Positions 4,429 to 25,720 are shown, numbered from the stretch's first letter. The stretch is 64,000 nucleotides of DNA from an uncultured Microthrixaceae bacterium (GCA_963703565.1 CAVPEW010000042.1:33327-97326), one strand, 5' to 3'. A program made the numbers and translations. Notes: generated by a model not told the origin, from the sequence alone.

Positions 4429-4446
4429 CACCGGCGGGTCCCGGGC

Positions 4447-5115: not shown

Positions 5116-5165
5116 CCGCGTCCGCGCCCCTGGGTACGAGGCTGCAGCGGTGGATCTCGAGGGTC

Positions 5166-5516: not shown

Positions 5517-5605
5517 GAGCCCTCCTCGAGATCTACGGGCGGAACCAGTATCACCTCGCCGGGGCGTCGGCGGGGGACCCGGGGCCGCCCGCCTACCATG
5601 GCGAA

Positions 5606-6899: not shown

Positions 6900-6930
6900 C
6901 CCCGCGCCCCGAAGCCGCCGCGGCCCGTTC

Positions 6931-8277
6931 GTGATGCGCTACGTGTCGACACGGGGCGCCGCCCCGTCGCTGGACTTCGGCGACGTGCTGCTCGAGGGGC
7001 TGGCGCGCGACGGCGGCCTCTACGTGCCCGAGGCGGTCCCCGCACTGGGTCCGGTCGACGCGGCCGCTTCCTACGCCGCGCTGGCGACCTCGGTGATGGC
7101 GCCCTACGCAACCGGCTTCGCCGGGCTCGCCGCGCACGTCGCCGACGCCTACGCCGGCTTCGACGACCCCGCCGTGTGCCCGATGGTCCGCCTCGCCGAC
7201 GGCCGTTGGGTCCAGGAGCTCTGGCACGGCCCGACCCTGGCGTTCAAGGACCTCGCCCTGCAGATCGTCGGCCGCCTGATGGACGCCGAGCTCGACCGTC
7301 GCGGCGACCGGCGCACCATCGTGGTCGCCACCTCGGGTGACACGGGCAGCGCGGCCATCGCCGCCTGCGTCGGGCGCGCCACCCTGGAAGTGGTCGTGCT
7401 GCACCCCGCCGGGCGGGTCAGCGACGTCCAGCGCCGCCAGATGACCACCGTGGACGCCCCCAACGTGCACAACGTCGCCGTCGAGGGGTCCTTCGACGAC
7501 TGCCAGGACCTGGTCAAGGCCCTCTTCTCCGACGAATCGCGCCGGGAGCGCTGCCGCCTGGGGGCCATGAACTCCATCAACTGGGGCCGGGTCCTCGCCC
7601 AGATCGCCTACTACGTCGACGCCACCCGCCGGGTCGGGGCGTGCGACGTGGTGGTGCCCACCGGCAACTTCGGCAACGTGCTCGCCGGCTGGTACGCCCG
7701 CGCGATGGGCGCGCCGATCGCCCGGCTGGTGATCGCCTCCAACCGCAACGACATCCTGCCCCGCTGGCTGGCCACGGGCACCCTTGCCGCCCAGGCCGTC
7801 CGCGAGACCCTGAGCCCCTCGATGGACATCCAGGTGTCGTCGAACCACGAGCGGCTCCTGTTCGAGCTGCTGGGCCGCGACGGCGCGGCCACCGCCGAGC
7901 TGGTGGATCGGTTCCGCTCGTCGGGCTCGGTCGAGGCGCCCGTGCCGGAGGGCTTCGCCGCCGGGCGCGCCGACGACCACGAGATCCTCGCGGAGATCGC
8001 AGCCGTAGCTCGGACCGGCTACCTCGCCGACCCCCACACCGCCGTCGGCCTGCACGTCGCGCGCACCCTCGGGCTCGGTGCCGAGCGCCCCGTCGTGTGC
8101 CTGTCCACCGCCCATCCCGCCAAGTTCCCCGACGCGGTCACGGCCGCCACCGGGTCGCCGCCCCCGGTGCCCGAACGCCTCGCCGCGCTGGCCGGGCTTC
8201 CCGAGCGCTACGAGGTCCTGCCCGCCTCGCTCGACGCTGTCGCCGCAGTGGTCGAGCGCTCCGCCCGCCCCGCCTGA
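6931..8277 (+). CDS. thrC: Threonine synthase
   Basis: 448 aa with MRYVSTRG...LYVPE at the N-terminus and the PLP-lysine motif LAFKDLALQ. It follows hom. The start is GTG 6931 or ATG 6934. Confidence 0.95.
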   Translation: MMRYVSTRGAAPSLDFGDVLLEGLARDGGLYVPEAVPALGPVDAAASYAALATSVMAPYATGFAGLAAHVADAYAGFDDPAVCPMVRLADGRWVQELWHGPTLAFKDLALQIVGRLMDAELDRRGDRRTIVVATSGDTGSAAIAACVGRATLEVVVLHPAGRVSDVQRRQMTTVDAPNVHNVAVEGSFDDCQDLVKALFSDESRRERCRLGAMNSINWGRVLAQIAYYVDATRRVGACDVVVPTGNFGNVLAGWYARAMGAPIARLVIASNRNDILPRWLATGTLAAQAVRETLSPSMDIQVSSNHERLLFELLGRDGAATAELVDRFRSSGSVEAPVPEGFAAGRADDHEILAEIAAVARTGYLADPHTAVGLHVARTLGLGAERPVVCLSTAHPAKFPDAVTAATGSPPPVPERLAALAGLPERYEVLPASLDAVAAVVERSARPA

Positions 8278-8358: not shown

Positions 8359-9510
8359 ATGCAGACACGAGCAGCCATCCTTTGGGGGGCCAAGACCGAC
8401 TGGAGCGTCGAGGACATCGAGCTCGACGAGCCCAAGACGGGCGAGGTAAAGGTGAAGCTCGCGGCCTCGGGCCTGTGCCACTCCGACGAGCACCTCGTCA
8501 CCGGAGACATGGCAATGGACCCGGAGACAGCGGCGCTGGTGGACCTCGAGCAGTACCCGATCATCGGGGGTCACGAGGGCGCCGGCGAAGTCGTCGAGGT
8601 CGGTCCGGGCGTGACCAGCGTCAAGGTGGGTGACCACGTGACCCTGGGCTTCATCCCCTCCTGCGGCCGCTGCCCCTCGTGCGCACGAGGCCGCCAGCAG
8701 CTCTGCGACCTGGGGGCGTTCGCCCTCGCCGGTCGCCAGATCAGCGACATGACCGCTCGGCACCACGCCAAGGACGGGCGCGACCTCGGGATCATGGCCG
8801 GTCTGGGCACGTTCTCGCCCTACACCGTGGTGAACGAGGCCAGCGCCATCAAGATCGACGACGACATCCCGCTCGACCGGGCTGCGCTGGTGGGCTGCGG
8901 GGTCACGACCGGGTGGGGTTCGGCCATCTACGCCGCCGACGTGCAACCCGGTGAGATCGTCGTGGTGATCGGCATCGGCGGCATCGGGATGAACGCCGTG
9001 CAGGGCGCCGCCCTCGCCGGCGCCCGCTACGTCGTGGTCGTCGACCCCGTCGACTGGAAGCGCCAGGCCGCGATCGACACCTTCGGCGCCACCCACCAGG
9101 CGGCGTCGATCGAGGAGGCCCAGGCACTGGTGGGCGAGATCTCCTGGGGCACGATGGCCGACAAGGCGATCCTCACGCCAGGCGTGGCCACCGGAGACCT
9201 CGTGCAGCCGATGATGAGCCTGGTCGCCAAGGGCGGTCGCGCCGTGGTCACAGCGGTGGCTCCCATGTCGCAGCACACCATCTCGCTCGACCTGTTCGAG
9301 CTGACGTTGCAGCGCAAGGAGCTCGTGGGCTGCATCTTCGGCAACGCCAACCCGCGCCGCGACATCCCGAGGCTGCTGCGGCTCTACATGGATGGCAAGC
9401 TGAAGCTGGACGAGCTGGTCACGACCACCTACGACCTGGACGGCGTCAACCAGGGCTACCAGGACATGCGTGACGGCAAGAACATCCGCGGCGTGCTCAA
9501 CTACGCCTGA
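8359..9510 (+). CDS. Zn-dependent alcohol dehydrogenase, NDMA-dependent (mycofactocin-associated, Rxyl_3153-like) type
   Basis: 383 aa with GLCHSDEH and GHEGAG (Zn ligands) and GIGGIG (Rossmann fold). It lies immediately upstream of mftA, and GGGGGAG precedes its ATG. Confidence 0.85.
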   Translation: MQTRAAILWGAKTDWSVEDIELDEPKTGEVKVKLAASGLCHSDEHLVTGDMAMDPETAALVDLEQYPIIGGHEGAGEVVEVGPGVTSVKVGDHVTLGFIPSCGRCPSCARGRQQLCDLGAFALAGRQISDMTARHHAKDGRDLGIMAGLGTFSPYTVVNEASAIKIDDDIPLDRAALVGCGVTTGWGSAIYAADVQPGEIVVVIGIGGIGMNAVQGAALAGARYVVVVDPVDWKRQAAIDTFGATHQAASIEEAQALVGEISWGTMADKAILTPGVATGDLVQPMMSLVAKGGRAVVTAVAPMSQHTISLDLFELTLQRKELVGCIFGNANPRRDIPRLLRLYMDGKLKLDELVTTTYDLDGVNQGYQDMRDGKNIRGVLNYA

Positions 9511-9530: not shown

Positions 9531-9656
9531 ATGACGATCACCGACCCCGCCGCTCCAGTCGACGAGCCCGTCGCAGTGGAGTCGGCCGAGGAGCTCGAGG
9601 CAGACGAGGTCCTGGTGGAGGAGATCTCCATCGACGGGATGTGCGGGGTCTACTGA
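9531..9656 (+). CDS. mftA: Mycofactocin precursor peptide
   Basis: Hand-translated 41 aa: MTITDPAAPVDEPVAVESAEELEADEVLVEEISIDGMCGVY. It has the diagnostic IDGMCGVY C-terminus. GAGGAG lies 7 nt upstream. It is too short for the ORF track. Confidence 0.9.
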   Translation: MTITDPAAPVDEPVAVESAEELEADEVLVEEISIDGMCGVY

Positions 9657-9660
9657 CCCC

Positions 9661-9915
9661 GTGGGCGCCCTCGAGCTCGACCCGAAGGTCGCCCTGCGGC
9701 CCGAGCCCTTCGGCGCCCTCGCCTACCACTACGGCACCCGCCGCCTCACCTTCCTGCGCTCGCCGGAGTTGGTGAAGCTGGTGGGCGAGCTCGCCGAGCA
9801 TGCCTCGATCGACGACGCGCTGGCCGCGTCGTCGATCGAGGCACGGCGTTGGCCGGCATTTCAAGCGGCCGTGGTCTCTTTGACCGATTCCGGATTCCTG
9901 AGGACCCGCGCATGA
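9661..9915 (+). CDS. mftB: Mycofactocin biosynthesis chaperone (PqqD-like RRE protein)
   Basis: 84 aa with LRPEPFGALAYHYGTRRLTFL, the PqqD/MftB pattern. It lies between mftA and mftC. Confidence 0.9.
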   Translation: MGALELDPKVALRPEPFGALAYHYGTRRLTFLRSPELVKLVGELAEHASIDDALAASSIEARRWPAFQAAVVSLTDSGFLRTRA

Positions 9916-11048
9916 CAACCCCCCTCGTCGATGACATGAAGAAGGGGCTCGACGCGCCCATCTGCTTGACCTGGGAGCTCACCTACGGCTGCAACCTGGC
10001 CTGCGTGCACTGCCTTTCGTCGTCGGGTCGGCGCGACCCCCGGGAGCTCGACACCGCCTCTGTCATGGGCCTGATCGACGAGCTCGCCGCCCTGCAGGTG
10101 TTCTACGTGAACATCGGCGGCGGCGAGCCCACCATCCGGGGCGACTTCTACGACATCGTCGACCACGCCGTGGCCAGCGGCGTGGGTGTGAAGTTCTCGA
10201 CCAACGGCTCCACCATCGACGCCACCCGCGCCCGACGCCTCGCCGGCAGCGACTACGTCGATGTGCAGCTCTCCATCGACGGCGCCACCGCCGCCACCAA
10301 CGACCCGATCCGCGGCGAGGGCTCCTACGCCACGGCCCGGCGGGCCATGGACAACCTCGCCGAAGCCGGCTTCGGCGCGTTCAAGATCAGCGTGGTGGTC
10401 ACGCGCACCAACATCGACGAGCTCGACGATCTCGAGGCTCTCGCGCGCCACTACGGCGCCCAGCTGCGCCTCACGCGCCTTCGTCCCTCGGGGCGTGGGG
10501 CCGGCGTGTGGGACCAGCTGCACCTGCTGTCCGGCCAGCAGGTCGATCTGTACCGGTGGCTGCTGGACCGGCCCGACGTGCTGACCGGCGACTCGTTCTT
10601 CCACCTCAACGCCCTGGGCGACTCCCTGCCCGGGCTGAACCTGTGCGGGGCGGGCCGCGTCGTGTGCCTCATCGACCCGTTGGGCGACGTGTACGCCTGC
10701 CCGTTCGTGCTGCACCCCGAGTTCCGCGCCGGCAGCGTCCTCGACGACGGCGGGTTCACTGCGGTGTGGCGCGACAGCGAGCTGTTCACCGACCTGCGCC
10801 GGCCCACCTCGCCCGGCGCCTGCGCCTCCTGCGGCAGCTACGACGCCTGCCAGGGCGGGTGCATGGCAGCCAAGTTCTTCACGGGCCTGCCCCTCGACGC
10901 GCCCGATCCCGAGTGCGTGCACGGCCACGGCGAGCGGGCCCTGGCCGGGGTCGCCGCCGACCTCGTCGCTCCGAAGGGCCCGGACCACTCCAGCGGCCGG
11001 CGACCCGTGCCTGTCAGTCTCGGGCGCGCCCCCGGCGGACGCTCCTGA
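9912..11048 (+). CDS. mftC: Mycofactocin radical SAM maturase (SPASM domain)
   Basis: CNLACVHC is a CxxxCxxC cluster. The C-terminal Cys-rich SPASM region contains CGAGRVVCLIDPLGDVYACPF and CASCGSYDACQGGC. ATG 9912 overlaps the mftB stop (ATGA). Confidence 0.95.
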   Translation: MTTPLVDDMKKGLDAPICLTWELTYGCNLACVHCLSSSGRRDPRELDTASVMGLIDELAALQVFYVNIGGGEPTIRGDFYDIVDHAVASGVGVKFSTNGSTIDATRARRLAGSDYVDVQLSIDGATAATNDPIRGEGSYATARRAMDNLAEAGFGAFKISVVVTRTNIDELDDLEALARHYGAQLRLTRLRPSGRGAGVWDQLHLLSGQQVDLYRWLLDRPDVLTGDSFFHLNALGDSLPGLNLCGAGRVVCLIDPLGDVYACPFVLHPEFRAGSVLDDGGFTAVWRDSELFTDLRRPTSPGACASCGSYDACQGGCMAAKFFTGLPLDAPDPECVHGHGERALAGVAADLVAPKGPDHSSGRRPVPVSLGRAPGGRS

Positions 11049-11148: not shown

Positions 11149-13111
11149 ATGACCCAGATGCGCCTGCTCGACCCGATCCAGTGGGGACCGCTACCGGCGC
11201 GCAACCGGGTCGTGTTCGGGCCACACGAGACGAACCTGGGCCGGGGTCGTGCCCTGTCCGATCGTCACGTCGCCTACTACGAGCGCCGAGCCGCCGGCGG
11301 GGCGGGCGTGGTCGTGGTCGAGGAGGCCTCCGTCCACGCCAGCGACTGGCCCTACGAGCGCGCCCCGCTCGCCGCCGAGGCCGCAGCGGGTTGGGCCGCC
11401 ATCGCCCGCGCCGTCCGTGCCCACGGAGCCCTGGCACTGGCCGCGCTGGGCCACTCCGGCGGGCAGGGGTCGAGCGCGTACAGCCAGGCACCGCTGTGGG
11501 CGCCGTCGAGGGTGCCGGAGGTCAACAGCCGCGAGGTCCCCAAGTGGATGGAGCGCGCCGACATCGGCGAGGTCGTCGACGGCTTCGCAGCCGCGGCGCG
11601 CGCCGCGGTGCGTGCCGGCTGCGACGGCGTGGAGGTCAACGCCGGCCAGCACAGCCTGATCCGTCAGTACCTGTCGGGGCTGACCAACCACCGCGCCGAC
11701 GACTACGCCGACCGGGTCCGCTTCGCACGTGAGGTGCTCAGCGCGGTGCGCGACGCCGTGGGCTCCGACGCGGTGGTCGGCCTGCGGCTCTCGTGCGACG
11801 AGCTGGCCCCCTGGGCCGGGCTGACGCCCGAGATGGCCGTGGAGGTGGCCCGCGAGCTTCGCCCCCCTCGTCCACCACATCACCGTGGTGCGCGGCTCGA
11901 TCTACTCGACCGGCGCCACCCGGCCCGACGGCCACACGCCCCCCGGTTTCAACATCGAGCTGGCCCGCGAGGTGCGCGCGGCGCTGGCCCCGGAGGTCAT
12001 CGTGGTCCTGCAGGGGTCGATCGTCGATCCGGCCATGGCCGACGACGCAGTGGCAAGTGGTGCGGCCGACGCGGTGGAGATGACCCGGGCCCTGCTCGCA
12101 GACGCGGAGCTGGTCACGAAGGTCCGAGCCGGGGAGGCCGAGCGGGTCCGCCCCTGCCTGTTGTGCAACCAGACCTGCCAGGTGCGCGACGCTCGCAACC
12201 CGATCGTGACCTGCGTGGTGGACCCCCGTACCGGCCACGAGCTCGACGACGACGACGCGGACCACCCGCCGAGCGCCACCCGGCCCGGCGACGTGCTGGT
12301 CGTGGGGGCCGGTCCGGCCGGGCTCGAGGCGGCCCGGGTCGCCGCGTTGCGAGGCCACCGTGTGCGGGTGGCCGAGCGCCTCGACCGCGCCGGCGGCGCC
12401 GTGCCCGTCGCGGCCCGCGGCGCGGGCCGCTCCCGCCTGGGAGCGCTCACCGACTGGTTGTCGGCGGAGTGCGCGCGGCTGGGGGTCAAGGTGGAGACCG
12501 GCCACGAGGTGACCGCCGACGACGTCGCCGCACACGACGGCCCGGTCGTGCTCGCCACCGGTTCGCGCGCGGGCGAGCGGACCTATTCCGTCGAAGACGA
12601 CGCCCGGCTGCGCACCGCGGCTCAGGTGCTGGACCCCGAAGGTCCCGATGCCGGTGACGCTCCGCCGTCGCCGGTGCTGGTTTGGGACCCCATCGGCGGC
12701 CCGATAGCGGTGTCGGTGGCCGAGACGCTGCGCGCACGCGGGGCCGAGGTGGCCATCGCCACCCCCGACCTGATCGTGGGCAACGAGCTGTCCCGCTCGG
12801 GCGACCTGGCCCCTGCCAACGCCCGGCTTCAGTCCGCGGGGGTCAGGATCGAACGTCGCTGCCTGCTGCGCCAGGTCGGCCCCGAGGGCGCCGTGCTCGA
12901 GGACCGCTTCACCGGGCAGCGCCGGACGGTGCCGGCGGCCACCGTGGTCGACGCCGGGCACCGGTTGCCCGAAGACGCCCTCTGGCTCGAGCTCGCCCCA
13001 CCCGAAGGCCCCTCGGCGGGCACGGTTCCCGCAGCCGGCGACGCCGTGGCGCCACGCACCATCCTCGAAGCGGTTCTCGAGGGTCGCCGGGTCGGGTTGG
13101 GTCTGGGCTGA
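11149..13111 (+). pseudogene. Mycofactocin-system FadH/OYE family oxidoreductase (paralog 1), frame broken by one extra base at about 11858-11867
   Basis: The OYE-like FMN domain (VVFGPHETN, HSGGQGSS, NAGQHSLIRQYLS) is in the frame of ATG 11149. The continuation HITVVRGSIYS...CLLCNQTC...VLVVGAGPAGLEAA is in the frame of track ORF 11885..13111. The join is at GAGCTTCGCCCCCCTC. Confidence 0.85.
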
Positions 13112-15072
13112 TGCGCTCCACCCGCTACCGGCACCTGTTCACCCCCCTACGGGTCGGCCCGGTCGTGGTGCCCAACCGGATCGTGTTCTCCGCGCACCTC
13201 ACCAACTACGCGGCCGAGGGTCTGCCCACCGACCAGCACGCCGCCTACTACGCGGCGCGCGCCGCGGGCGGTGCCGGGCTCATCATCACCGAGGAGCACT
13301 CCACCCACCCCACCGATTGGCCCTACGAGAAGCTGATCCACGGCTTCCACCCCGAGGTGGTGCCCGGGTACCGGCGCATCACCGATGCCGTGCACCGTCA
13401 CGGCACGCCGATCTTCGCCCAGATCAACCACAACGGCGGGCAGGCCAGCTCCATGTTCTCCCGCCTCCCGGTGTGGGCGGCGTCGGCGGTGGCCGACCCC
13501 CTCTTTCGCGAGGTGGCCCACGCCGTCGACCAGCGCGAGATCGCCGAGATCGTTGCCGGCTACGCCCTCGTGGCAGAGCACTGCCGCGCCGGTGGCTTCG
13601 ACGGGATCGAGCTGCAGTGCTCGCACAGCTCCATCGTGCGCGGGTTCCTCTCGCCCGCGGTGAACCGTCGCACCGACCGCTACGGCGGCCCGCTGGCCGA
13701 TCGGGCCCGCATCCTGCTCGAGATCGTCGCCGCGGTGCGCGAAGCGATCGGGCGCGACCTGGCTCTGGGGGTGCGTCTGTGCGGGGACGAGCTGATCGAG
13801 GGTGGCACGACCATCGACGACGCCGTCGAGGTCGCCCGCATGGTGCAGACCCAGGGTCTGACCGACTACGTCAACACCTCGATCGGAGTGGCCACCGCGT
13901 CGCTGTTCATGATCGAGGCGTCGATGCAGGTCCCGCCCGGCTACGCGATGTTCATCCCCTCGGCTCTGCGCAAGGCGATCGACCTGCCCGTCATCGGCGT
14001 GGGCCGGTTCAAGGACCCGGTGCAGGCCGACCGGGCGCTCGAGGAGGGCCACTGCGACCTGGTGGGCGTGGTCCGGGGCCAGATCGCCGATGCCGACTTC
14101 GCCGCCAAGGCCCACGCTGGGCGCACCGAGGACATCCGGCTGTGCCTGTCGTGCAACCAGGAGTGCGTCGGGCGCATGGGGCTGAACCGCTGGCTGGGAT
14201 GCATCGAGAACCCGCGCACCGGTCGCGAGGCCACCGCCCCTGCGGTCGTGCGGCGCGAGCGTCCTCGCCGGGTGGTGGTGGTCGGAGCCGGCCCGGCCGG
14301 CCTGCAGGCGGCGCTGGCGGCCGCCGAGGCCGGCCACCGGGTGACGGTGCTCGAGCGCCGCGCCGAGGCCGGCGGGCAGGTCCGTCTGGCGGCGAGCGTG
14401 CCCAGCCGGGCCGAGCTCGGTGACCTGGTCCGCAACCAGGTGCACGCCTGCGCCCGCCTCGGCGTCGAGATCCGCTACGGGGTCGATGCCGACGCGGCGG
14501 CGGTCACCGCGCTGGCGCCGGAGGTGGTCGTGGTCGCCACCGGCGCCGAACCCGCCCGACCGTGGTGGGCGCCAGCCGATGCCGAGCGCGTCGTCGACGT
14601 GGTCGAGGTGCTCGAGGGCCGGGTCCAGCCCTCCGGGCGGGTCCTCGTGGTCGACGAGCTGGGCTTCCACCACGCCACCTCGGTGGCCGAGCTGCTCGCC
14701 GACCGGGGCGCGCAGGTGACCGTGGCGGCTCCCGGGATGGTCGTGGGACAGGACCTGGGCATAACCCTCGACATGGAGCACTGGCAGATCAAGGCGGCAG
14801 CGAAGGGCATCGAGCAGCTCGTGGAGCTCGTGCCGATGGCCTTCGACCCCGCTGCCGGACGCCTCACGGTGCAGCACCACCCCACCGGCACAGAACGCCA
14901 CCTCGACGCGGACTGGATCGTGCTGGCGGTCCCCGCGTCACCGCTCGAGGCGCTCTACCACGAGCTGGCGGGCCTCCCCGGCCTCGAGGTGCACCGCGCC
15001 GGCGATTGCGTCGCGCCGAGGCGGGCTCACGCCGCGGTGGTCGAGGGTCAGCGGGTCGGGGCGGCGTTGTGA
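13111..15072 (+). CDS. Mycofactocin-system FadH/OYE family oxidoreductase (paralog 2)
   Basis: 653 aa from ATG 13111. It has an OYE/FMN barrel (IVFSAHLTN, NHNGGQASS, QCSHSSIVRGFLSP), the CLSCNQEC Fe-S motif, and the FAD/NAD fold VVVVGAGPAGLQAA. The first 143 codons of the track ORF are out-of-frame overlap with the upstream gene. Confidence 0.9.
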   Translation: MRSTRYRHLFTPLRVGPVVVPNRIVFSAHLTNYAAEGLPTDQHAAYYAARAAGGAGLIITEEHSTHPTDWPYEKLIHGFHPEVVPGYRRITDAVHRHGTPIFAQINHNGGQASSMFSRLPVWAASAVADPLFREVAHAVDQREIAEIVAGYALVAEHCRAGGFDGIELQCSHSSIVRGFLSPAVNRRTDRYGGPLADRARILLEIVAAVREAIGRDLALGVRLCGDELIEGGTTIDDAVEVARMVQTQGLTDYVNTSIGVATASLFMIEASMQVPPGYAMFIPSALRKAIDLPVIGVGRFKDPVQADRALEEGHCDLVGVVRGQIADADFAAKAHAGRTEDIRLCLSCNQECVGRMGLNRWLGCIENPRTGREATAPAVVRRERPRRVVVVGAGPAGLQAALAAAEAGHRVTVLERRAEAGGQVRLAASVPSRAELGDLVRNQVHACARLGVEIRYGVDADAAAVTALAPEVVVVATGAEPARPWWAPADAERVVDVVEVLEGRVQPSGRVLVVDELGFHHATSVAELLADRGAQVTVAAPGMVVGQDLGITLDMEHWQIKAAAKGIEQLVELVPMAFDPAAGRLTVQHHPTGTERHLDADWIVLAVPASPLEALYHELAGLPGLEVHRAGDCVAPRRAHAAVVEGQRVGAAL

Positions 15073-16019
15073 CGCCCTCCGGCACGAGCGCATGGGGTGA
15101 CGGGCCGGCGACGGCGGTCGTGGTCGCGCGTGACGGTGAGCTCCCTCTCGGCGCAGACGAGGCCGTCGCGACCGCAGCCGGGTCGGCGCTGGTCGTCGGC
15201 TCGGGGACCGCGGTGGCCGCCAAGGCCCTCCAGACGGCCCGCCGTGCCCGGACCGTCGAGCTGGGCGACTACGCGCCGGGTGCCTGGTCCCGGACCCTGG
15301 CGCCGGTGCTCGCCGGGGTCGACCTGGTGGTACTGCCCGCCAGCCCCGACGGGCGCGACCTGGCCCCCCGCCTGGCCCACGAGCTCGACCGTGGCCTGCT
15401 CGCGGGCGCGGTCCAGGTCACCGACGACCACGTCACCCTCGTGCGCCGAGGTGGGCTCGTGGCCGAGACCCACCGGCGCGCCGGTCCGGTGGTGGTCACC
15501 CTGGTGCCCGGCTCGCTCGGCGTCGAGCCCCTCGGCGACGAGCCCGTGATCGAGGTCCTGGACCCGGCGCAGGGCACCGGCGGAGGGTTCGACGCCACCG
15601 TGGTCGAGCTCGTGGCCCCCGACCCCGCCACCGTCGATCTGGCCGACGCCCGGCGCATCGTGGCGGGTGGCGCCGGTCTGGGGGGACCGGAGCCGTTCGC
15701 AACCCTCGAACGGGTCGCCGTCGCGTTGGGGGCAGCCTTCGGCGCCACCCGGGTGGCCTCCGACGTGGGCTGGGCCCCCCACGACCGCTACATCGGCACC
15801 ACCGGGGTGGCCGTCGACCCCGACCTGTACGTGGCGTTGGCCGTGTCGGGCGCGGTTCAACACGTGACCGGGTTGGGCCAACCCGACCACATAGTTGCCG
15901 TGAACGTCGATCCCAGCGCTCCCATGATGGCCATGGCAGACCTGGCGCTGGTGACCGATGCCCGCGCCCTTCTCGACGAGCTGGCCCGACGCCTGGAGGT
16001 CGACACCGATGGCCGCTGA
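15069..16019 (+). CDS. Electron transfer flavoprotein alpha subunit-like (mycofactocin-associated)
   Basis: It has the C-terminal ETF-alpha FAD domain (RIVAGGAGLG...ATRVASDVGW...IGTTGVAVDPDLYVALAVSGAVQH). The GTG start overlaps the upstream stop (GTGA at 15069-15072). Confidence 0.85.
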   Translation: MTPSGTSAWGDGPATAVVVARDGELPLGADEAVATAAGSALVVGSGTAVAAKALQTARRARTVELGDYAPGAWSRTLAPVLAGVDLVVLPASPDGRDLAPRLAHELDRGLLAGAVQVTDDHVTLVRRGGLVAETHRRAGPVVVTLVPGSLGVEPLGDEPVIEVLDPAQGTGGGFDATVVELVAPDPATVDLADARRIVAGGAGLGGPEPFATLERVAVALGAAFGATRVASDVGWAPHDRYIGTTGVAVDPDLYVALAVSGAVQHVTGLGQPDHIVAVNVDPSAPMMAMADLALVTDARALLDELARRLEVDTDGR

Positions 16020-17322
16020 GGTGCGCACCGAGTTCGACGCCGTGGTCGTGGGTGCTGGCCCGGCCGGCTCCGCGGCGGCGTTGACCCTGGCCCGTGCCGG
16101 CAAGCGCGTCGCGCTGGTCGAGCGCGGGCCGTACCCGGGGTCGAAGAACATGTACGGCGGCGTCGTGTACGGGCGCATCCTCGACACCCTCGTGCCCCGC
16201 TGGTGGGAGCAGGTCCCCGTTCAGCGCTGGATCACCCGGCGCCAGACGATGATGCTCACCGAGCACCAGGCGTTGACCGTCGACTTCCGTACCGAGGCGT
16301 GGGGTGATGCGCCCTACAACGGCTGCACCACCTTCCGCCCGGACTTCGACTCCTGGCTGGCCGGCGTCGCCACCGACGAGGGCGCCACGCTGGTCACCTC
16401 GACCACCGTCGTCGGGCTGTTGCGGGGCGCCGGTGGGAACGTGGTCGGCGTTCGCACCGACCGCGGCGAGCTGCGGGCCCCCCTCGTCGTGGCCTGCGAC
16501 GGGGTCAACTCGTTCCTGGCCAAGGAGGCCGGGCTCCACCCCCACGGCGACGAACCGGACCACTTCACCCTCGGGGTCAAAGAGGTCCTCGGCCTGCCCC
16601 GGGAGGTGATCGAGGCCCGATTCGGGGTGCGTGGCGACCATGGGGTCGACATCGAGGTGGTGGGGGCGACCGGCGACGTGGCCGGTGGCGGGTTCGTCTA
16701 CACCAACGCCGACTCGGTGGCGATCGGCGTCGTGCTGTCCCTGCCCGACCTGGCCCGCAGCGGCACCCGGCCCGAGACGTTCCTGGCCCGCCTCAAGGCC
16801 CACCCCGCCATCGCCCCCCTCATCGAGGGCGGCGACGTGAAGGAGTACTCCGCCCACCTGATCCCCGAGGGCGGCTACGACCACCTGCCGGGCCTGCACA
16901 CCGACGGCCTGCTCGTGGCGGGCGACGCCGCCGGGCTGTGCCTCGCCGCGGGCATCTGGCTCGAGGGCGTCAACTTCGCCATCGGCTCGGGGGCGGTGGC
17001 CGGCGAGGTGGCCGCCGAGGCCCTCGTGCGCGGCGACACGAGCGCAGCCGGGCTGGCCGACTACCGGCGCCGCCTCGAGGCGAGCTTCGTGCTCGCCGAC
17101 CACCGCAAGCTGCGTGGCGCTCCCGATCTGATCCTGTCGCCGAGGATGCAGCAGCGGTACCCCGGCGTGATCTGCGACCTGGTGGAGGCCATGTTCACCG
17201 TCGACAACCCGACCCCCAAGCCGGGAGCGCTGGCTGCGGCCCGCGCCGCCGCCAAGCGCCACGACGTGAAGCTGCGGCACCTGGCGCGCGACACCGTCCG
17301 AGCCCTGAGGGCCTACGGGTGA
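16009..17322 (+). CDS. FixC/ETF-quinone-oxidoreductase-like FAD-dependent oxidoreductase
   Basis: DAVVVGAGPAGSAAA dinucleotide fold, ACDGVNS, and GDAAG. ATG 16009 overlaps the ETF-alpha end by 11 nt. Confidence 0.85.
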   Translation: MAAEVRTEFDAVVVGAGPAGSAAALTLARAGKRVALVERGPYPGSKNMYGGVVYGRILDTLVPRWWEQVPVQRWITRRQTMMLTEHQALTVDFRTEAWGDAPYNGCTTFRPDFDSWLAGVATDEGATLVTSTTVVGLLRGAGGNVVGVRTDRGELRAPLVVACDGVNSFLAKEAGLHPHGDEPDHFTLGVKEVLGLPREVIEARFGVRGDHGVDIEVVGATGDVAGGGFVYTNADSVAIGVVLSLPDLARSGTRPETFLARLKAHPAIAPLIEGGDVKEYSAHLIPEGGYDHLPGLHTDGLLVAGDAAGLCLAAGIWLEGVNFAIGSGAVAGEVAAEALVRGDTSAAGLADYRRRLEASFVLADHRKLRGAPDLILSPRMQQRYPGVICDLVEAMFTVDNPTPKPGALAAARAAAKRHDVKLRHLARDTVRALRAYG

Positions 17323-17432
17323 GCGCCCCCGCCCGGGCCGGGCGCGCCCCGCTGCTCGACCGCTTCCGTCGCCTGCGGGCCGGGCGCGTCGCGCTGCCCA
17401 CCGACGCCGACGACGTCGGCTCGGGAGGTGCC

Positions 17433-17738
17433 GTGCGGCCCGATGCGCCCGACGCCGGAGGCATCGACTTCCAGGACCGGATGGGCACGGTGGACTTCCG
17501 CGTCGGCGAACGTGCCCACATCACCGTCGACGGTGACACCTGCCGGGGCTGCACGACCCGCGAGTGCGTCACCGGCTGCCCGGCGAACCTGTTCGTTCCC
17601 ACCTCCGACGGAGGGATCCTGTTCAACTACGAGCAGTGCTTCGAGTGCGGCACGTGCTACTTGGTCTGCAACCGGCAGGGCGCCATCACGTGGACCTATC
17701 CCGACGGTGGCCACGGCGTCGCATACCGCCGCTCATGA
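17433..17738 (+). CDS. FixX-like ferredoxin-like protein
   Basis: Cys motifs CRGCTTRECVTGCP and CFECGTCYLVC. GTG 17433 is preceded by GGGAGG and gives about 101 aa, the typical FixX size. An alternative start at GTG 17319 would overlap the fixC stop. Confidence 0.75.
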   Translation: MRPDAPDAGGIDFQDRMGTVDFRVGERAHITVDGDTCRGCTTRECVTGCPANLFVPTSDGGILFNYEQCFECGTCYLVCNRQGAITWTYPDGGHGVAYRRS

Positions 17739-18592
17739 CCGTCGCCGTTTGCGTCAAGCTCGTGGACTCCCGGCCCGAGGTCGACCCGCTCACCGGCGAG
17801 GTGACCGTCGACGCCCGTGCCGCCGGCATCAGCGAGGCCGACCAGGCCGCTCTGGAGTGGGGCCTGCGCCTCGGCGAGACGTGGGGAACCCCGGTGCTGG
17901 CGGTCAGCGCCGGACCTCCGCCGGCAGAGGTCGTGCTGCGCGACGCCCTGGCCGCGGGTGCTGCCCGAGCCGTACGGGTCGACCTGGAACCCGATGCGCC
18001 CAGCGCGTACGTCGCCTCGGCGCTGGCGTCGGTGGTCGCCGGCTCGGACGTCGTGCTGTGCGGCGACTGGTCCATCGACCGCGGCAGCGGCTCGGTGCCC
18101 GCCTTCGTGGCAGCGCACCTCGACGCTGCCCAGGCGCTGGGCCTGGTCGAGCTGACGGCGGGCCCGCCCGGCCGCTTGGCCGCGCTCCGCCGCCTCGACG
18201 CTGGGCGCCGCGAGCGCCTCGACATCTCGGCGCCCGCGGTCTGCTCGGTCGAGGGTCGGATCCGGCTGCGCCGGGCGAGCCTCGAGGGTGTCCTCGCGGC
18301 CGGTGACGCCGTGGTGGAGGTCCGCCAACCGCCGGGCGGCGAGCTGGGTGCAGCGCCCTGCGAGGCGGTCCGCACCGGTCCGTACCGGCCTCCGGCGAGA
18401 GTCCTGCGCCCGCCCGAGGGCGACGATGCCCGCACCCGCATCCTGGCCCTGACCGGGGCGCTGGTCGACCGCACGCCCCCCGAGCGCCTCGTGCTCGAAC
18501 CGCCCGACGCCGCGGAGCGGCTGTTGGCCCAGCTGGTCTCGTGGGGGTACCTCGACGAGGTTCCCGCCCCCCCGGCGCCGGCGGGCTCCTGA
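17735..18592 (+). CDS. Electron transfer flavoprotein beta subunit-like (mycofactocin-associated)
   Basis: MTVAVCVKLV...PEVDPLTG is an ETF-beta-type N-terminus, and CGDWSIDRGSGSVPAFVA is also ETF-beta-like. ATG 17735 overlaps the fixX stop (ATGA). Confidence 0.85.
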   Translation: MTVAVCVKLVDSRPEVDPLTGEVTVDARAAGISEADQAALEWGLRLGETWGTPVLAVSAGPPPAEVVLRDALAAGAARAVRVDLEPDAPSAYVASALASVVAGSDVVLCGDWSIDRGSGSVPAFVAAHLDAAQALGLVELTAGPPGRLAALRRLDAGRRERLDISAPAVCSVEGRIRLRRASLEGVLAAGDAVVEVRQPPGGELGAAPCEAVRTGPYRPPARVLRPPEGDDARTRILALTGALVDRTPPERLVLEPPDAAERLLAQLVSWGYLDEVPAPPAPAGS

Positions 18593-18633: not shown

Positions 18634-19419
18634 ATGACCGACACGAAGCCCGGTGGGGGAGCCGGGTCCGCGGGTCACCCGGGCGGACGCCCGGTGTCGA
18701 CGCGCAGGAGCCGGCTCCCAGGTGAACCCCCCACCGCCCCACCCGAGGGGCGCCTCGAGACGCTGTGCTGGCCCGACGTCGACGACCGGGCGGGATCGCT
18801 GCTGCTCGTGGTGCCCCTCGGCGCGACCGAGCAGCACGGGCCGCACCTGCCCTTCGCCCTGGACTCGCTGGTGGCAACCACCTTGGCGTGGGGCCTCGCG
18901 GCAGCACGCGACGACGTGGTCGTGGCACCGACCCTGCCCTTCGGCTCCAGCGGCGAGCACGCCGGCTTCGCCGGGACCCTCTCGATCGGACAGGCCGCCC
19001 TGGAGCTGGTGGTGACCGAGCTGGTCCGCTCGGCCGACGCCTTCGCCGGGGTAGTGCTGGTCAACGGCCACGGCGGCAATGCCGAGCCCCTGGCGGCAGC
19101 CCAGCGGACCCTGGCCGAGGAGGGCCGCAGGGTCCTGGTGTGGTCTCCGAGAGCAGACGGTGACATCCACGCGGGCCGAACCGAGACCTCCCTCGCCCTG
19201 GCCCTCGACGCCGACGGCGTGAGGCTCGATCGCGCCGAGGCCGGCGATGTGCACACGCTGTCTGCGTTGATCGAGCGCCTGCGCAGTGAGGGGGTCCGGG
19301 CAGTGTCGCCCAACGGCGTGCTCGGCGACCCCAAGGGCTCGTCGGCAACCGAGGGGCGCATCCTCGTGGACGCTCTGGTGGCCGACCTCGTGCGCAAGGT
19401 CCGCACCTGGGCTCGTTGA
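18634..19419 (+). CDS. mftE: Mycofactocin precursor peptide peptidase (creatininase family)
   Basis: LVVPLGATEQHGPHLP, GSSGEHAGFAGT, NGHGGN and HAGRTETS are creatininase-fold motifs. The start is uncertain: ATG 18634 or an in-frame GTG about 60 nt downstream. Confidence 0.85.
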   Translation: MTDTKPGGGAGSAGHPGGRPVSTRRSRLPGEPPTAPPEGRLETLCWPDVDDRAGSLLLVVPLGATEQHGPHLPFALDSLVATTLAWGLAAARDDVVVAPTLPFGSSGEHAGFAGTLSIGQAALELVVTELVRSADAFAGVVLVNGHGGNAEPLAAAQRTLAEEGRRVLVWSPRADGDIHAGRTETSLALALDADGVRLDRAEAGDVHTLSALIERLRSEGVRAVSPNGVLGDPKGSSATEGRILVDALVADLVRKVRTWAR

Positions 19420-20217
19420 CACCCCCGGCGCCGGTCGCGGTGCTGACCGGCGCGGCACGGGGCATCGGTGCTGCGACCGCGCGGGGCCTGGCCGCGGACG
19501 GGTGGAGCCTGGTCCTCGTCGACCGCTGCGCCGACGACCCGGCCCTCGGCTACCCCTTGGCCACCCGGGCCGAGCTCGACGCTGTGGCGGCCGAGTGCGG
19601 TGGGCCGAAGCGGGCGGTCCCGGTGGTCGCCGACGTGCGTGACCAGCGGGCCATCGACGGGGCCGTCGCCCTGGCCGTGGAGCGCTTCGGCGGCCTCGAC
19701 GCCGCCGTGGCCGCCGCCGGGGCGCTCGTGGGCGGCCCGGTCGCCTGGGACACCGACGACGCCGCCTGGGCGACGATGGTGGGGGTGAACCTGGAAGGGC
19801 CGTGGCGCCTGGCGCGGGCGGCGGTCCCCGCGCTGCTGTCGCGCCCGGCTCCCAGGCAGGGTCGGGTCGTGGTGATCGCGTCGTCGGGCGGCCTGGTCGG
19901 GCTTCCCCGCATGGCGGCCTACAGCGCCGCCAAGCACGGCGCGATCGGGCTGGTGCGCAGCCTGGCGGCCGAGCCTCGGCGAGGAGGGGGTGACGGTGAA
20001 CGCGGTCGCGCCCGGGTCGACGGGCACCGCCATGCTCGACGCGAGCGCCGCCGTCTACGACCTGGCCTCGCCCGACGAGTTCGCGGTGCACCACCTGCTC
20101 GGCCGGCTGCTGGGCCCCGACGAGGTGGCCGCCGCCGTGCGCTGGCTGTGCAGCCCGGCGGCCAGCGGGGTGACCGGTGCGGTGGTGCCCGTCGACGCCG
20201 GCATGACCGCGCGGTGA
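19416..20217 (+). pseudogene. Mycofactocin-coupled SDR family oxidoreductase, frame broken by one extra base at about 19974
   Basis: TGAARGIG, the insert DRCADDPALGYPLATRAELDAV, and YSAAKHG are in the frame of 19416. The C-terminal part VTVNAVAPGSTGTAM...VPVDAGM is in the frame of track ORF 19990..20217. The join is at GAGCCTC. Confidence 0.8.
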
Positions 20218-21704
20218 GGGCAGGCGCGCTCGGCAGGCCGCCCCGTCCGGCTCGGGACCCGCCGGGAGTGCCTCGGCCCTCGGACCCGCCGCCACCGTTG
20301 CCGGCGCGCTGGCGCGTCGTGCTCGACCACCGAACCAGGCGCGACCGCACCGGCACGGTGGTCTCGGGGGGCCACCCCTGGCGCATCCTGCGCCTCACCC
20401 CCTCCGGCGCCCGACTGCTCGCTCGCCTCGCCGCCGGTGAAGCGGTGTCCACCGATGCGAGCGGTGCGCTGGCGCGGCGCCTGGTCGAGGGCGGCCTGGC
20501 CCACCCGCGCCCACCCGCCGCCGGGCCCTTCGTGGCGCGGGAGCGACCGAGCGTGGTGGTGCCGGTGCGTGGCGAGCCCGCTGAGCTGGACACCACGCTG
20601 GACTCGCTCGGCGCGGTGCGCGAGGTCGTGGTCGTCGACGACGCTTCGCTCGACGCCGGAGGCATCGCCGCCGTGGCGCGCCGCCACGGGGCGACGCTGG
20701 TGCGCCACGAGGTCACCGGCGGCCCGGCCGCCGCACGCGAGGCGGGCTGGCGGCGCTGCGAGGGACCGGTCGTGGCCTTCGTCGACGCCGGGGTCGAGCT
20801 GCCCGCACGCTGGTACGAGCCTCTCGGCGACCACCTCGGCGACCGCAGCGTGGTGGCGGTGGCGCCCCGGGTTCGGCCCACGGCGCGCCCGGGCACGCCA
20901 CGTTGGCTGGCGCGGTACGAGGCCCGCCGTTCGCCCCTCGACCTGGGTGGCCGCCCGGCCGAGGTGCGCCCGGCGTCGCCGGTGGCGTACGTGCCCACCG
21001 CGACCCTGGTGGTGCGTCGCAGCGCCTTGGAGGAGGTGGGTGGGTTCGACCCGGCACTGCGCTACGGGGAGGATGTCGACCTGGTCTGGCGCCTGGTCGG
21101 TGCCGGGGGCCGGGTCCGCTACGAGCCAAGGGTGGTGGTGCGTCACCCGGTGCGCACCTCCCTGCGGGCACTGGTCCTGCAGCGGGCCGGCTACGGCTCG
21201 GCGGCGGGGCCGCTGGCCAGGCGCCACGGCTCGGCTGTGGCGCCGGCACGGATCTCACCCGGCGCCGGCGCCGGCTGGTGGCTGGTCGCCTCGGGCGCCC
21301 CGCGGGCAGCGGGGGTCGTGATCGGGGTGTCCAACGCCCCTCTGGTACGGCGCCTGGCCTCGCTGCCCCACCCGGTGCGCACCGCCGCCCGCCTCGGGCT
21401 GGCCGGCCAGATGTCGGCCGGTCGACAGCTCGTCGAGGCGGCCCGCAGGGTCTGGGCTCCCGGCCTGGCAGTGGCCGCCGCGCTCGGTGGCCGCCGCACC
21501 CGCGGGGTCGTCGCCTCGGTGTGGGTGTTGCCACCGCTGTGCGAGGCGCTCGCCCGTCGCCCCGAGCTGGGGCTGGCCCGGTGGATCGCCCTGCGTGCCG
21601 TGGACGACATCGCCTACTGCGCGGGCGTCTGGCGAGGCTCGTGGGCGGCGCGCACCACGGTCGCGCTGCGTCCGGTTCGGCCCCGCCCGAACCCGGCGCA
21701 GTGA
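20214..21704 (+). CDS. mftF: Mycofactocin system glycosyltransferase
   Basis: The MftF-type N-terminus is WRVVLDHRTRR..GTVVSGGHPWRILRLTPSGARLL. The GT2 core contains VVVPVRGE, VVVVDDAS and GEDVDLVWR. The GTG start overlaps the SDR stop (GTGA). This gene is the last two thirds of the chimeric track ORF 19416..21704. Confidence 0.85.
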   Translation: MRAGALGRPPRPARDPPGVPRPSDPPPPLPARWRVVLDHRTRRDRTGTVVSGGHPWRILRLTPSGARLLARLAAGEAVSTDASGALARRLVEGGLAHPRPPAAGPFVARERPSVVVPVRGEPAELDTTLDSLGAVREVVVVDDASLDAGGIAAVARRHGATLVRHEVTGGPAAAREAGWRRCEGPVVAFVDAGVELPARWYEPLGDHLGDRSVVAVAPRVRPTARPGTPRWLARYEARRSPLDLGGRPAEVRPASPVAYVPTATLVVRRSALEEVGGFDPALRYGEDVDLVWRLVGAGGRVRYEPRVVVRHPVRTSLRALVLQRAGYGSAAGPLARRHGSAVAPARISPGAGAGWWLVASGAPRAAGVVIGVSNAPLVRRLASLPHPVRTAARLGLAGQMSAGRQLVEAARRVWAPGLAVAAALGGRRTRGVVASVWVLPPLCEALARRPELGLARWIALRAVDDIAYCAGVWRGSWAARTTVALRPVRPRPNPAQ

Positions 21705-23318: not shown

Positions 23319-24046
23319 GGCGCGAGCCCCATCGCCTCGATCAGCGGCGGCAGCTCAGCGAGCGACGCGAGGACCTCGAAGCCGGCGACGTCGGCGTCGG
23401 CATCGGCGTGGTCGAGTGGCCAGATCAGCTCGTGGGGAACGTGCACGGCGCGCGCGCCCACCGCCAGCACGGGCAGCACGTCGCTGGCCACCGAGTTGCC
23501 GACCATCACGAAACCCTCCGGCCGCGCCCCGACCCGGGCCAGCACCGTGCGGTAGGTCGCCTCGTCCTTCTCCGACACGATCTGGAGGGAGTCGAAGGCG
23601 TCGATGAGGCCTGACCGGGCCGCCTTGAGCTCCTGGTGCAGCAGGTCACCCTTGGTCACCAGCACGAGCCGGGCCCTGCCGGCCAGCGCCTCGACGGCCT
23701 CGGCAGCCCCGTCGAGCAACTCCAACGGAGCGCGCAGCAGCTCCTTGCCGATCTCGAGGACCTCGGCCAGGTCCCGCGCGCTGATGGCGCCCTGGGTCAC
23801 CTCCACCGCGGTCTCCACCAGCGACAGGGTGAACGCCTTCACCCCGTAGCCGAACAGGGAGAGGTTGGCCCGCTCCACCTCGAGCAGGCGCCCGTCGAGC
23901 TCGTCGGGGTCGATGGCCGCGGAGCGGGCCACGATGGCGCGGTAGGCGAGCTGGGCCGACTGGAAGTGCCGCTCGCTGTGCCAGAGGGTGTCGTCGCCGT
24001 CGAGGCCCACGACCGTGATCGGCCCGTGCGAGCCCTCGCCGATCAC
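23315..24046 (-). CDS. HAD family hydrolase
   Basis: VGLDGDDTLW is the DxDxT motif; LVTKGD and MVGNSVASD are also present. GTG 24046 overlaps the ABC1 kinase stop (GTGA). Upstream codons of the track ORF look non-coding. Confidence 0.75.
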   Translation of the reverse strand: MIGEGSHGPITVVGLDGDDTLWHSERHFQSAQLAYRAIVARSAAIDPDELDGRLLEVERANLSLFGYGVKAFTLSLVETAVEVTQGAISARDLAEVLEIGKELLRAPLELLDGAAEAVEALAGRARLVLVTKGDLLHQELKAARSGLIDAFDSLQIVSEKDEATYRTVLARVGARPEGFVMVGNSVASDVLPVLAVGARAVHVPHELIWPLDHADADADVAGFEVLASLAELPPLIEAMGLAP

Positions 24047-25635: not shown

Positions 25636-25720
25636 CGCGTCGATGGTAGGTCGCCCCCGCGGTCGCCCCGGCCGGGCTCTCACGGGCACCGCTGGGGGCG
25701 CCGTCGTAGGGTCGCACGCC

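Follow-up and report, generated by a model that had tools for sequence, protein, structure and literature searches.

Mycobacteria and many other Actinomycetota depend for their alcohol metabolism on mycofactocin, a redox cofactor derived from a peptide. Its link to respiration was shown in mycobacteria in 2025 to be MftG, an enzyme of the GMC family; about 25% of the genomes with mftC lack MftG, and the enzyme that substitutes for it there is a stated open question (PMC11778925). Two systems described for electron transfer flavoproteins (ETFs) are of interest in this context: trimethylamine dehydrogenase (TMADH) is a documented ETF donor (PMC12630350) for which co-crystals are available (1O94/1O95), and the EtfABCX complex of Thermotoga maritima reduces menaquinone (PMC10734219). 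Here we discuss a stretch of DNA of 64,000 nucleotides from an uncultured Microthrixaceae bacterium (GCA_963703565.1 CAVPEW010000042.1:33327-97326), in which genes for ETF alpha (etfA), a FixC-like oxidoreductase subunit (fixC), a FixX-like ferredoxin (fixX) and ETF beta (etfB) sit inside a mycofactocin (mft) operon. The whole stretch, at its full length, is called the window below.

What could such a module do for the cofactor? We propose that EtfAB and FixCX, fed by the neighbouring oxidoreductase OYE_2, would pass electrons from reduced mycofactocin to menaquinone and thereby stand in for MftG, a reading to which we give about an even chance of being right. The underlying hypothesis of cofactor re-oxidation appears well supported by the comparative evidence, that is, by the position of the module within mft loci and by its separation from mftG.

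An ETF module within a mycofactocin operon

The four genes occupy 15069-18592 on the plus strand in the order alpha-C-X-beta, as a preliminary description of this stretch had reported, and follow the gene for OYE_2:

13111..15072, plus strand: OYE_2, mycofactocin-system FadH/OYE oxidoreductase 2 (TIGR03997, 959.6 bits, cut-off 793)
15069..16019, plus strand: etfA, mycofactocin-associated ETF alpha, 316 amino acids (NF038209, mft_etfA, 374.5 bits, cut-off 240; PF00766 ETF_alpha, about 93 bits)
16009..17322, plus strand: fixC/etfC-like FAD-dependent subunit of an ETF:quinone oxidoreductase (ETF-QO), 437 amino acids (250 bits to 7KOE_C)
17319 or 17433 to 17738, plus strand: fixX/etfX-like ferredoxin with 8 Cys, 2x[4Fe-4S] (Cys motifs; PRK15449, 48.7 bits)
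17735..18592, plus strand: etfB, mycofactocin-associated ETF beta, 285 amino acids (TIGR04503, mft_etfB, 276.5 bits, cut-off 200)

Both etfA and etfB thus score above the curated NCBIfam cut-offs for a 'mycofactocin-associated electron transfer flavoprotein' (NF038209, TIGR04503), and the exact EtfA, FixC, EtfB and OYE_2 proteins exist as independent NCBI/ENA gene calls. The module is part of one close-packed plus-strand operon at 8.3-21.7 kb, which reads ADH-mftA-mftB-mftC-OYE_1-OYE_2-[etfA-fixC-fixX-etfB]-mftE-SDR-mftF (ADH, alcohol dehydrogenase; SDR, short-chain dehydrogenase/reductase). With mftA, mftB and mftC upstream and mftE and mftF downstream in the same operon, the ETF is a member of the mycofactocin locus. 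The window has a G+C content of about 74% and holds no second ETF.

The gene borders within this operon are tight. As read from the sequence, the stop of OYE_2 and the start of etfA overlap in GTGA (15069-15072), etfA and fixC overlap by 11 nucleotides (16009-16019), and fixX and etfB share ATGA (17735-17738); all three overlaps described earlier are therefore present. A possible fourth, GTGA at 17319-17322 between fixC and fixX, depends on where fixX starts. With a start at 17319, as in the NCBI/ENA call, FixX would have 139 amino acids, while the alternative GTG at 17433 (101 amino acids) has a GGGAGG ribosome-binding site 5 nucleotides upstream and would leave a spacer of 110 nucleotides after fixC. 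Because FixX measures 85-104 amino acids in relatives and the ribosome-binding site at 17433 is a good one, this junction is uncertain; the G+C content at third codon positions (GC3) of the putative N-terminal extension, 0.92 in frame and 0.89 in another frame, leaves the start codon unsettled. Overlapping junctions recur along the operon (mftB/mftC, where the mftB stop and the likely mftC start, ATG 9912, share ATGA; OYE_1/OYE_2; OYE_2/etfA; etfA/fixC; fixX/etfB; mftE/SDR; SDR/mftF), and judged by these borders the mft operon is translationally coupled.

Distribution of the family and conservation of its gene order

How common is this arrangement? A word-indexed search recovered 777 proteins of the EtfB family at E<=1e-10. 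At E<=1e-30 the family comprises 233 clusters at 50% identity, and 240 species-level genomes encode relatives. The closest ones, at 62-65% identity, come from metagenome-assembled genomes of Acidimicrobiales and other Actinomycetota. For the comparison of loci, 80 ETF-anchored loci from different species (1.16 Mb) were fetched, and the proteins of the window as well as reference MftD, MftG and MftR were mapped onto them. Genes of mycofactocin biosynthesis are present in 73 of the 80, and the module usually lies between mftC/OYE and mftE. The prospect that such ETF genes would stand apart from mft genes in other genomes, which the preliminary description had raised, is thereby not borne out.

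The order of the genes is equally stable. Among the 65 informative loci, namely those that reach far enough, etfA-fixC-fixX-etfB is contiguous on one strand in 60; four of the remaining five, all from one Acidimicrobiaceae clade, have fixC inverted and one is rearranged. FixCX is kept in 64 of the 65. Going upstream from etfA, the first gene that could be recognised is OYE_2 in 48 of 49 loci, directly abutting in roughly three quarters, and mftE follows etfB in 66 of 73. The alpha-C-X-beta order, at first regarded as unusual, does differ from fixABCX, but it is the norm in this family and the hallmark of an ETF family that already has a name.

Some variation is seen around this common plan. 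In the Acidimicrobiaceae clade (L075 6111-9970, L078, L079 and L080) the inversion of fixC is relative to etfA, fixX and etfB, and L075 has two insertions ahead of fixX, a QueF-like gene and one for a membrane-anchored protein rich in Thr. Some Ilumatobacteraceae-like loci have a gene for a DedA-family membrane protein directly upstream of etfA (L059 6742-7395, L081 6611-7267). A hidden mftD was considered for the OYE_2-etfA gaps of 0.7-4.5 kb that some loci have, whose contents are unrelated (P-type ATPase, purE/purK, DedA, PIN toxin).

Plasmids of Streptomyces sp. SAT1 and S. yangpuensis carry mftABC-OYE_1-OYE_2-etfA-fixC-fixX-etfB-mftF-mftE, in SAT1 with an SDR gene after etfB, and the layout is also found in Saccharopolyspora phatthalungensis and Amycolatopsis. 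It extends to the haloarchaea: pHTUR01 of Haloterrigena turkmenica (L094 15486-21184) has OYE-etfA-fixC-fixX-etfB with a single OYE_2-like gene, and a plasmid of Halolamina sp. CBA1230 (L095 14491-20723), also with a single OYE_2-like gene, keeps the order, with fixX and etfB set apart by an SDR gene. The best NCBIfam matches of these haloarchaeal proteins are the mycofactocin-specific models, at scores below cut-off as distant members, which is why RefSeq gives them generic names. RefSeq applies the names of the mycofactocin-associated ETF and the mycofactocin-system FadH/OYE families to proteins of Streptomyces, Amycolatopsis, Pseudonocardia, Prauserella, Saccharopolyspora and further genera, and its annotation shows an identical layout in Streptomyces, Amycolatopsis and Saccharopolyspora. 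Taken together, the NCBIfam models and the RefSeq names mean that both the family and its association with mycofactocin are already known at the level of annotation; what is added here is the absence of mftD from ETF-type loci and a degenerate NAD(P)H domain in OYE_2 like that of histamine dehydrogenase.

Loci with the module and loci with mftG or mftD

Do the module and MftG occur side by side? Neither mftD nor mftG is found in any of the 80 ETF-anchored loci, and etfA, etfB, fixC and fixX are absent from all of 80 mftD-anchored metagenome loci (0.67 Mb), seven of which carry mftG. The profiling of ETF-type mft loci against mftG that had been suggested earlier thus gives exclusivity at the level of the locus, in both directions, for ETF versus mftG and mftD. 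The same picture is seen in the 64 kb of the window, where tblastn with MftG, three MftD references and MftR returned nothing at E<0.01 and no large open reading frame matched the NCBIfam models for mftG, mftD or mftR, confirming the reported lack of mftG.

The genus Streptomyces holds both types: in Streptomyces sp. NBC_00080 the locus reads mftR-mftG-mftABCDEF and lacks an ETF, and in S. yangpuensis and Streptomyces sp. SAT1 it includes the module but neither mftD nor mftG. Genome-wide, MftG has been scored FALSE for Streptomyces sp. SAT1, S. yangpuensis, Haloterrigena turkmenica and Halolamina sp. CBA1230 (PMC11778925 supplementary file 2), four strains that we matched to module loci via identical MftC accessions. 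The score is also FALSE for five of five listed Saccharopolyspora, 8 of 9 Amycolatopsis and Prauserella marina, and for isolates of the Acidimicrobiia, namely two Aquihabitans, Iamia and Ilumatobacter (PMC11778925). A third configuration is seen on a plasmid of Thermomicrobium roseum (L088), which carries mftD and two NDMA-dependent ADH genes beside mftA, mftB, mftC and mftF, with no mftE, OYE or ETF within 14 kb.

The lack of mftD holds at every ETF-type locus examined: the window, the 80 loci, Streptomyces, Saccharopolyspora, Amycolatopsis and the haloarchaea. At the actinobacterial loci the module follows mftC, exactly where mftD lies in canonical clusters. That MftD is not universal was noted by Haft (2011), and 17 Saccharopolyspora clusters without mftD but with TIGR03997 have been described (PMC11162802, 2024). 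Saccharopolyspora erythraea and Amycolatopsis methanolica make oxidised and reduced methylmycofactocins (PMC9679996). A search with MftD in a set of 5.8 billion proteins gave, as its best 120 matches, MftD of Streptomyces and Actinomadura at >=82% identity, and is uninformative on ETF-type genomes. An apparent overlap of strain names (NPDC04706...) concerns different genomes, judged by accession range. OYE_1 as an MftD surrogate travelling with mftC was also considered and set aside: MftC is directly upstream in only 21 of 28 loci, and OYE_1 and OYE_2 coexist with mftD in 3 of the 80 mftD-anchored loci.

The ETF and its probable quinone-reductase branch

EtfA has its FAD-binding domain (PF00766, 93.2 bits), in which SGAVQH aligns with SGAIQH of solved ETFs. 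EtfB conserves the nucleotide-core residues E41, G60, G110 and D115 as well as the recognition-loop leucine L183 (LRRASL), which aligns with human PRYATL and PRYASL of W3A1 and is nearly invariant in A1, one of the two EtfB family alignments used (A1 and A3). The two subunits are about equidistant from canonical and bifurcating solved ETFs, and the mycofactocin-associated ETF forms a clade of its own. Among PDB entries EtfB scores highest against its bifurcating counterpart from A. fermentans, with 58.7 bits as compared to 51.1 for the canonical W3A1 ETF.

Electron bifurcation had been offered as an alternative role, and it is disfavoured by motif checks. Bifurcating ETFs require Gly123 in EtfB (A. 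fermentans numbering), a small residue that leaves room for the second FAD (PMC12630350). The EtfB of the window has an Arg there (DWSIDRGSGSV against RQAIDGDTAQV), and across the family the position varies between R, G, E and H: most members have R, S. yangpuensis and Saccharopolyspora have G. We read this variability as a sign that no flavin is packed at this site, with the choice between AMP and FAD unsettled. Group-2, that is bifurcating, ETFs are further marked by the motifs RXGV and GxxSPTxV in the small subunit and RPXFGG in the large one (PMC10734219). RXGV is absent from EtfB, where VDARAAG aligns with RDGVTNI and RDGVPSI, and from all of A1; GxxSPTxV is not evident in the C-terminal arm on inspection of A1 alone, in which no bifurcating C-terminal sequence was aligned. 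EtfA has RRGG instead of RPXFGG (VRR---GG-L against TRPTFGGNL of 7KOE_B), with the Arg kept and the loop shortened. EtfA and EtfB probably form a dedicated, non-bifurcating ETF.

The other two subunits point towards quinone. FixC scores 250 bits to T. maritima FixC/EtfC (7KOE_C) and 63 bits to porcine ETF-QO (2GMH); among family models it reaches 333 bits with PRK10015 and 304 bits with FixC PRK10157, both below their cut-offs, and its quinone-binding domain (PF21162, ETFQO_UQ-bd) passes marginally with 28.7 bits at a cut-off of 27.7. A fused 4Fe-4S domain as in ETF-QO was not found (PF05187, 20.5 bits, below the cut-off of 24), the iron-sulphur part being the separate FixX. This ferredoxin has eight Cys, arranged as CxxCx4Cx3CP and CxxCxxCx3C, which fits two 4Fe-4S clusters, and its best family is FixX PRK15449, where its 48.7 bits stay below cut-off. 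FixC and FixX are probably a split ETF:menaquinone oxidoreductase, in effect a split ETF-QO, with quinone as their likely acceptor.

OYE_2 as a candidate electron donor

OYE_2 is built from an FMN-binding TIM barrel (PF00724, 194.9 bits), a 4Fe-4S motif of the form CxxCxxxC...C (CLSCNQEC...C), a second domain (FAD/ADP Rossmann) with an intact GxGxxG (VVVVGAGPAG), and a third domain without GxGxxG. In the latter, VVDELGFHHA aligns with VYDDDHYYLG of histamine dehydrogenase (3K30), and FadH is unaligned at this place. Since the third domain lacks the dinucleotide motif, as in histamine dehydrogenase, NAD(P)H is an unlikely partner of OYE_2. The relatives in the PDB comprise 2-naphthoyl-CoA reductase (NCR, 6QKG), FadH (1PS9), histamine dehydrogenase (3K30) and TMADH (1DJN); the closest are NCR with 272 bits and FadH with 252 bits, and the second-best NCBIfam matches are BaiCD and bilirubin reductase. 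Presumably the third domain is also like that of TMADH, and OYE_2 seems to lack the Cys to which TMADH attaches its FMN as 6-S-cysteinyl-FMN, with SAHLTN in its place; both statements are our own reading. OYE_2 would be the best candidate for feeding electrons to the ETF because it has no NAD(P)H site, because TMADH provides a precedent, and because its gene is coupled to etfA through GTGA.

The OYE enzymes are also encountered without an ETF. Locus L104 (10001-17000, metagenome contig Ga0208247_10008) is a canonical mftR-mftB-mftC-mftD-OYE_1-SDR-OYE_2-mftE-mftF-mftG cluster with no ETF, in which OYE_1 scores 1172 and OYE_2 1006 bits. The presence of both paralogues there indicates an ETF-independent role of the OYE enzymes.

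The remainder of the operon and its surroundings

Around OYE_2 and the module, the operon comprises the following genes:

8359..9510, plus strand: NDMA-dependent (nicotinoprotein) Zn alcohol dehydrogenase (TIGR03989, 587.5 bits, cut-off 440)
9531..9656, plus strand: mftA, precursor peptide with the C-terminal end ...IDGMCGVY (from the translation; the exact 41-amino-acid product is a recorded gene call)
9661..9915, plus strand: mftB, chaperone (TIGR03967, 93.4 bits, cut-off 33)
9912..11048, plus strand: mftC, radical SAM maturase (TIGR03962, 593.6 bits; ATG 9912 is the likely start)
11149..13111, plus strand: OYE_1, mycofactocin-system FadH/OYE oxidoreductase 1, frame-broken (TIGR03996, N part 354 bits, C part 420 bits)
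18634..19419, plus strand: mftE, peptidase (TIGR03964, 255.4 bits, cut-off 172)
19416..20217, plus strand: mycofactocin-coupled SDR (subfamily 2), frame-broken (TIGR04504, N part 226.7 bits, C part 93.4 bits)
20214..21704, plus strand: mftF, glycosyltransferase (TIGR03965, 383.6 bits, cut-off 280)

The NDMA-dependent ADH, whose gene flanks many related loci too, is presumed to be a mycofactocin-reducing enzyme. For OYE_1 the TIGR03996 cut-off of 627.9 is exceeded only by the sum of the bits of both fragments (354 + 420). Its +1 frame break lies within 11861-11885, at a C run (CGCCCCCCTC); that of the SDR gene, also +1, lies within 19965-19990, at GAGCCTCGG, where GAGCTCGG would preserve the frame. 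Both breaks resemble single-C insertions and are thus either assembly errors or signs of pseudogenes. The C part of OYE_1, of 408 amino acids, is on record, and the NCBI/ENA gene calls retain the fragments.

Directly upstream of the operon are the housekeeping genes argS, lysA, hom and thrC (1532-8277). Elsewhere the window contains two UbiB-family kinase genes (24043-25809, minus strand; 43397-44986, plus strand), an F420-dependent LLM-class oxidoreductase (37185-38132) and two acyl-CoA dehydrogenase genes (35881-37149; 56370-57668, minus strand). None of these, housekeeping genes included, is a conserved neighbour of the ETF.

From mycofactocinol to menaquinone: a proposed route and its alternatives

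In the route that we propose, nicotinoproteins (the NDMA-dependent ADH and the SDR) would oxidise alcohols or other substrates and reduce mycofactocin. Mycofactocinol would then be re-oxidised at the FMN of OYE_2, possibly together with OYE_1, and the 4Fe-4S cluster of OYE_2 would pass the electrons to the FAD of EtfA; from there they would travel through the FixX clusters to the FAD of FixC and finally to menaquinone. The operon would hence hold a complete path from substrate to respiratory chain without MftG. With -255 mV for PMFT/PMFTH2 and -74 mV for menaquinone, as cited in PMC11778925, the drop in potential makes a route from mycofactocinol to menaquinone favourable. The substrate, the pairing of OYE_2 with the ETF and the direction of flow to quinone are what the proposal adds to the gene identities, their order and coupling, the mft linkage, the exclusivity and the motif status found in the loci. 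The re-oxidation reading was already put forward in the preliminary description: the mft linkage, the exclusivity with mftG and the proximity of FixC to a menaquinone reductase speak for it, while the gene order as an oddity, the novelty of the association with mycofactocin, which is already curated, and bifurcation have had to be given up.

Several observations weigh against the proposed route. True OYE_1 and OYE_2 stand beside mftD in 3 of the 80 mftD-anchored loci and once beside mftG (L104), each time without an ETF, so the pairing of OYE_2 with the ETF is not obligatory and has gene adjacency as its sole basis. T. roseum lacks MftG according to the published table, and around its mft genes, mftD among them, no ETF is encoded, which means that other routes must exist. 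In Pseudonocardia there are MftG-positive species and, in different strains, ETF-positive species, and exclusivity is therefore unproven at the level of the genome. For the source organism the absence of mftG and mftD covers the 64-kb window, and a copy elsewhere in its genome is possible. The EtfB residue that discriminates between AMP-type and FAD-type is variable within the family. Finally, our search of the open-access literature found no paper that mentions mycofactocin together with an ETF.

Could the module serve the making of the cofactor rather than its use? An OYE enzyme that hands its electrons to ETF/FixCX would then take over from MftD, an FMN enzyme, and convert AHDP to premycofactocin by oxidative deamination, and it may recycle the cofactor as well, the same carbon being oxidised. 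This fits the lack of mftD from all ETF-type loci examined (0 of 80, and likewise the window, Streptomyces, Saccharopolyspora, Amycolatopsis and the haloarchaea), the canonical mftD position of the actinobacterial module after mftC, and the production of both cofactor forms by S. erythraea and A. methanolica (PMC9679996), Saccharopolyspora clusters being without mftD and with TIGR03997 (PMC11162802). The chemistry has parallels in the superfamily of OYE_2. Histamine and trimethylamine dehydrogenases, which belong to it, are amine oxidisers. The OYE_1 (1172 bits) and OYE_2 (1006 bits) found beside mftD argue that these enzymes are not simple MftD substitutes, and a four-gene respiratory feeder would seem excessive for a single biosynthetic step; on balance we hold a role in biosynthesis to be unlikely, though worth keeping in sight. 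A wider version combines both functions. One ETF/FixCX chain with an OYE would replace MftD and MftG alike, the OYE making the keto-amide from AHDP and re-oxidising mycofactocinol at the same carbon, with the electrons passing via the dedicated non-bifurcating ETF to menaquinone. This would amount to a second, widespread mycofactocin architecture in at least 240 species (Acidimicrobiia, many Actinomycetes and haloarchaea), a generalisation that we put forward as doubtful.

A reductive flow, or a shuttle, is quite improbable in our view. OYE_1 and OYE_2 would in that case be ene-, dienoyl- or aryl-CoA-type reductases (FadH, NCR or BaiCD-like), which the ETF supplies or links as paralogues, and FixCX would be for overflow or entry only. 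The closest solved relatives of OYE_2 are indeed reductases (NCR and FadH, at 272 and 252 bits, with BaiCD and bilirubin reductase as second-best NCBIfam matches), two OYE paralogues are usually present, and a canonical ETF shuttles between two dehydrogenases in Fusobacterium (PMC12630350). However, the haloarchaeal loci keep the ETF and FixCX with one OYE only, the retention of FixCX in 64 of 65 informative loci argues for quinone as a regular partner, and a reductase of low potential would have to be supplied uphill from menaquinol (-74 mV), which is unfavourable.

Bifurcation of the FixABCX/EtfABCX type, in which NADH or mycofactocinol would give part of its electrons to menaquinone and part to a ferredoxin or flavodoxin of low potential, can draw on the presence of FixC and FixX homologues, the closest solved FixC coming from the bifurcating T. 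maritima EtfABCX, on the small margin by which a bifurcating EtfB is the best PDB match, and on the Gly at the Gly123 position in some family members. Against this stand the Arg in the window and the variation of the position across the family, the status of the three group-2 motifs, the equal distance of both subunits from canonical and bifurcating solved ETFs, a gene order other than fixA(beta)-fixB(alpha)-fixC-fixX, and a locus without ferredoxin, flavodoxin or nitrogenase genes, which together make bifurcation very unlikely. An ordinary catabolic ETF of fatty acid or amino acid breakdown, placed beside mft genes by chance and serving acyl-CoA dehydrogenases, for which the window has two genes, is close to refuted: these two lie at a distance of over 17 kb and are not conserved neighbours, whereas the ETF genes are part of the mft operon, their stops and starts overlapping, are linked to mft genes in 73 of 80 species loci and in two domains of life, and form a clade with curated mycofactocin-specific models.

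Implications

The comparative data offer a concrete candidate for an MftG substitute in a large share of the mycofactocin genomes that lack MftG. S. erythraea and A. methanolica are culturable producers of the cofactor (PMC9679996), and congeners of both carry the module. A second gap concerns biosynthesis: the loci are without mftD, yet S. erythraea, from a genus with this type of locus, makes the mature cofactor. For genome mining this has a practical side, as rules that demand mftD misclassify ETF-type clusters (PMC11162802).

Comparison with known systems

How does the window set relate to the systems that have been described? It is structurally no different from the mycofactocin-associated ETF families of NCBIfam, which are defined by context only, and is another member of them. 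With T. maritima EtfABCX (7KOE) and the FixABCX of Azotobacter and Rhodopseudomonas, which bifurcate electrons and reduce menaquinone or ubiquinone, it shares the same four subunit folds, including a FixX with two 4Fe-4S motifs, and quinone as the likely acceptor. In contrast to these complexes its order is alpha-C-X-beta and not beta-alpha-C-X, its ETF subunits are no closer to group-2 than to canonical ETFs, and its locus has no ferredoxin or nitrogenase context, nor a reason to expect NADH as donor.

The canonical pair of ETF and TMADH from Methylophilus methylotrophus W3A1 (PDB 1O94-1O97) has the recognition-loop Leu of the beta subunit in common with it, and there, as here, the ETF genes have next to them a gene for an Fe-S flavoprotein from the FadH/TMADH superfamily. 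OYE_2 itself is nearer to NCR and FadH than to TMADH, and it shares with histamine dehydrogenase a third domain without the dinucleotide motif. Canonical ETF and ETF-QO provide the model for the last steps, the ETF handing its electrons to a quinone reductase as proposed here; in the window, however, fixCX lies between the genes for alpha and beta, and the ETF-QO is split into FixC and FixX. MftG, finally, has the same role that we propose for the module, namely the re-oxidation of mycofactocinol with transfer of the electrons to the respiratory chain, and the two are exclusive in the loci examined. They belong to unrelated families: MftG is a single GMC flavoenzyme whose function has been shown experimentally, whereas the module, with a role inferred from its genes, would bring together an Fe-S flavoprotein and four ETF/FixCX subunits.

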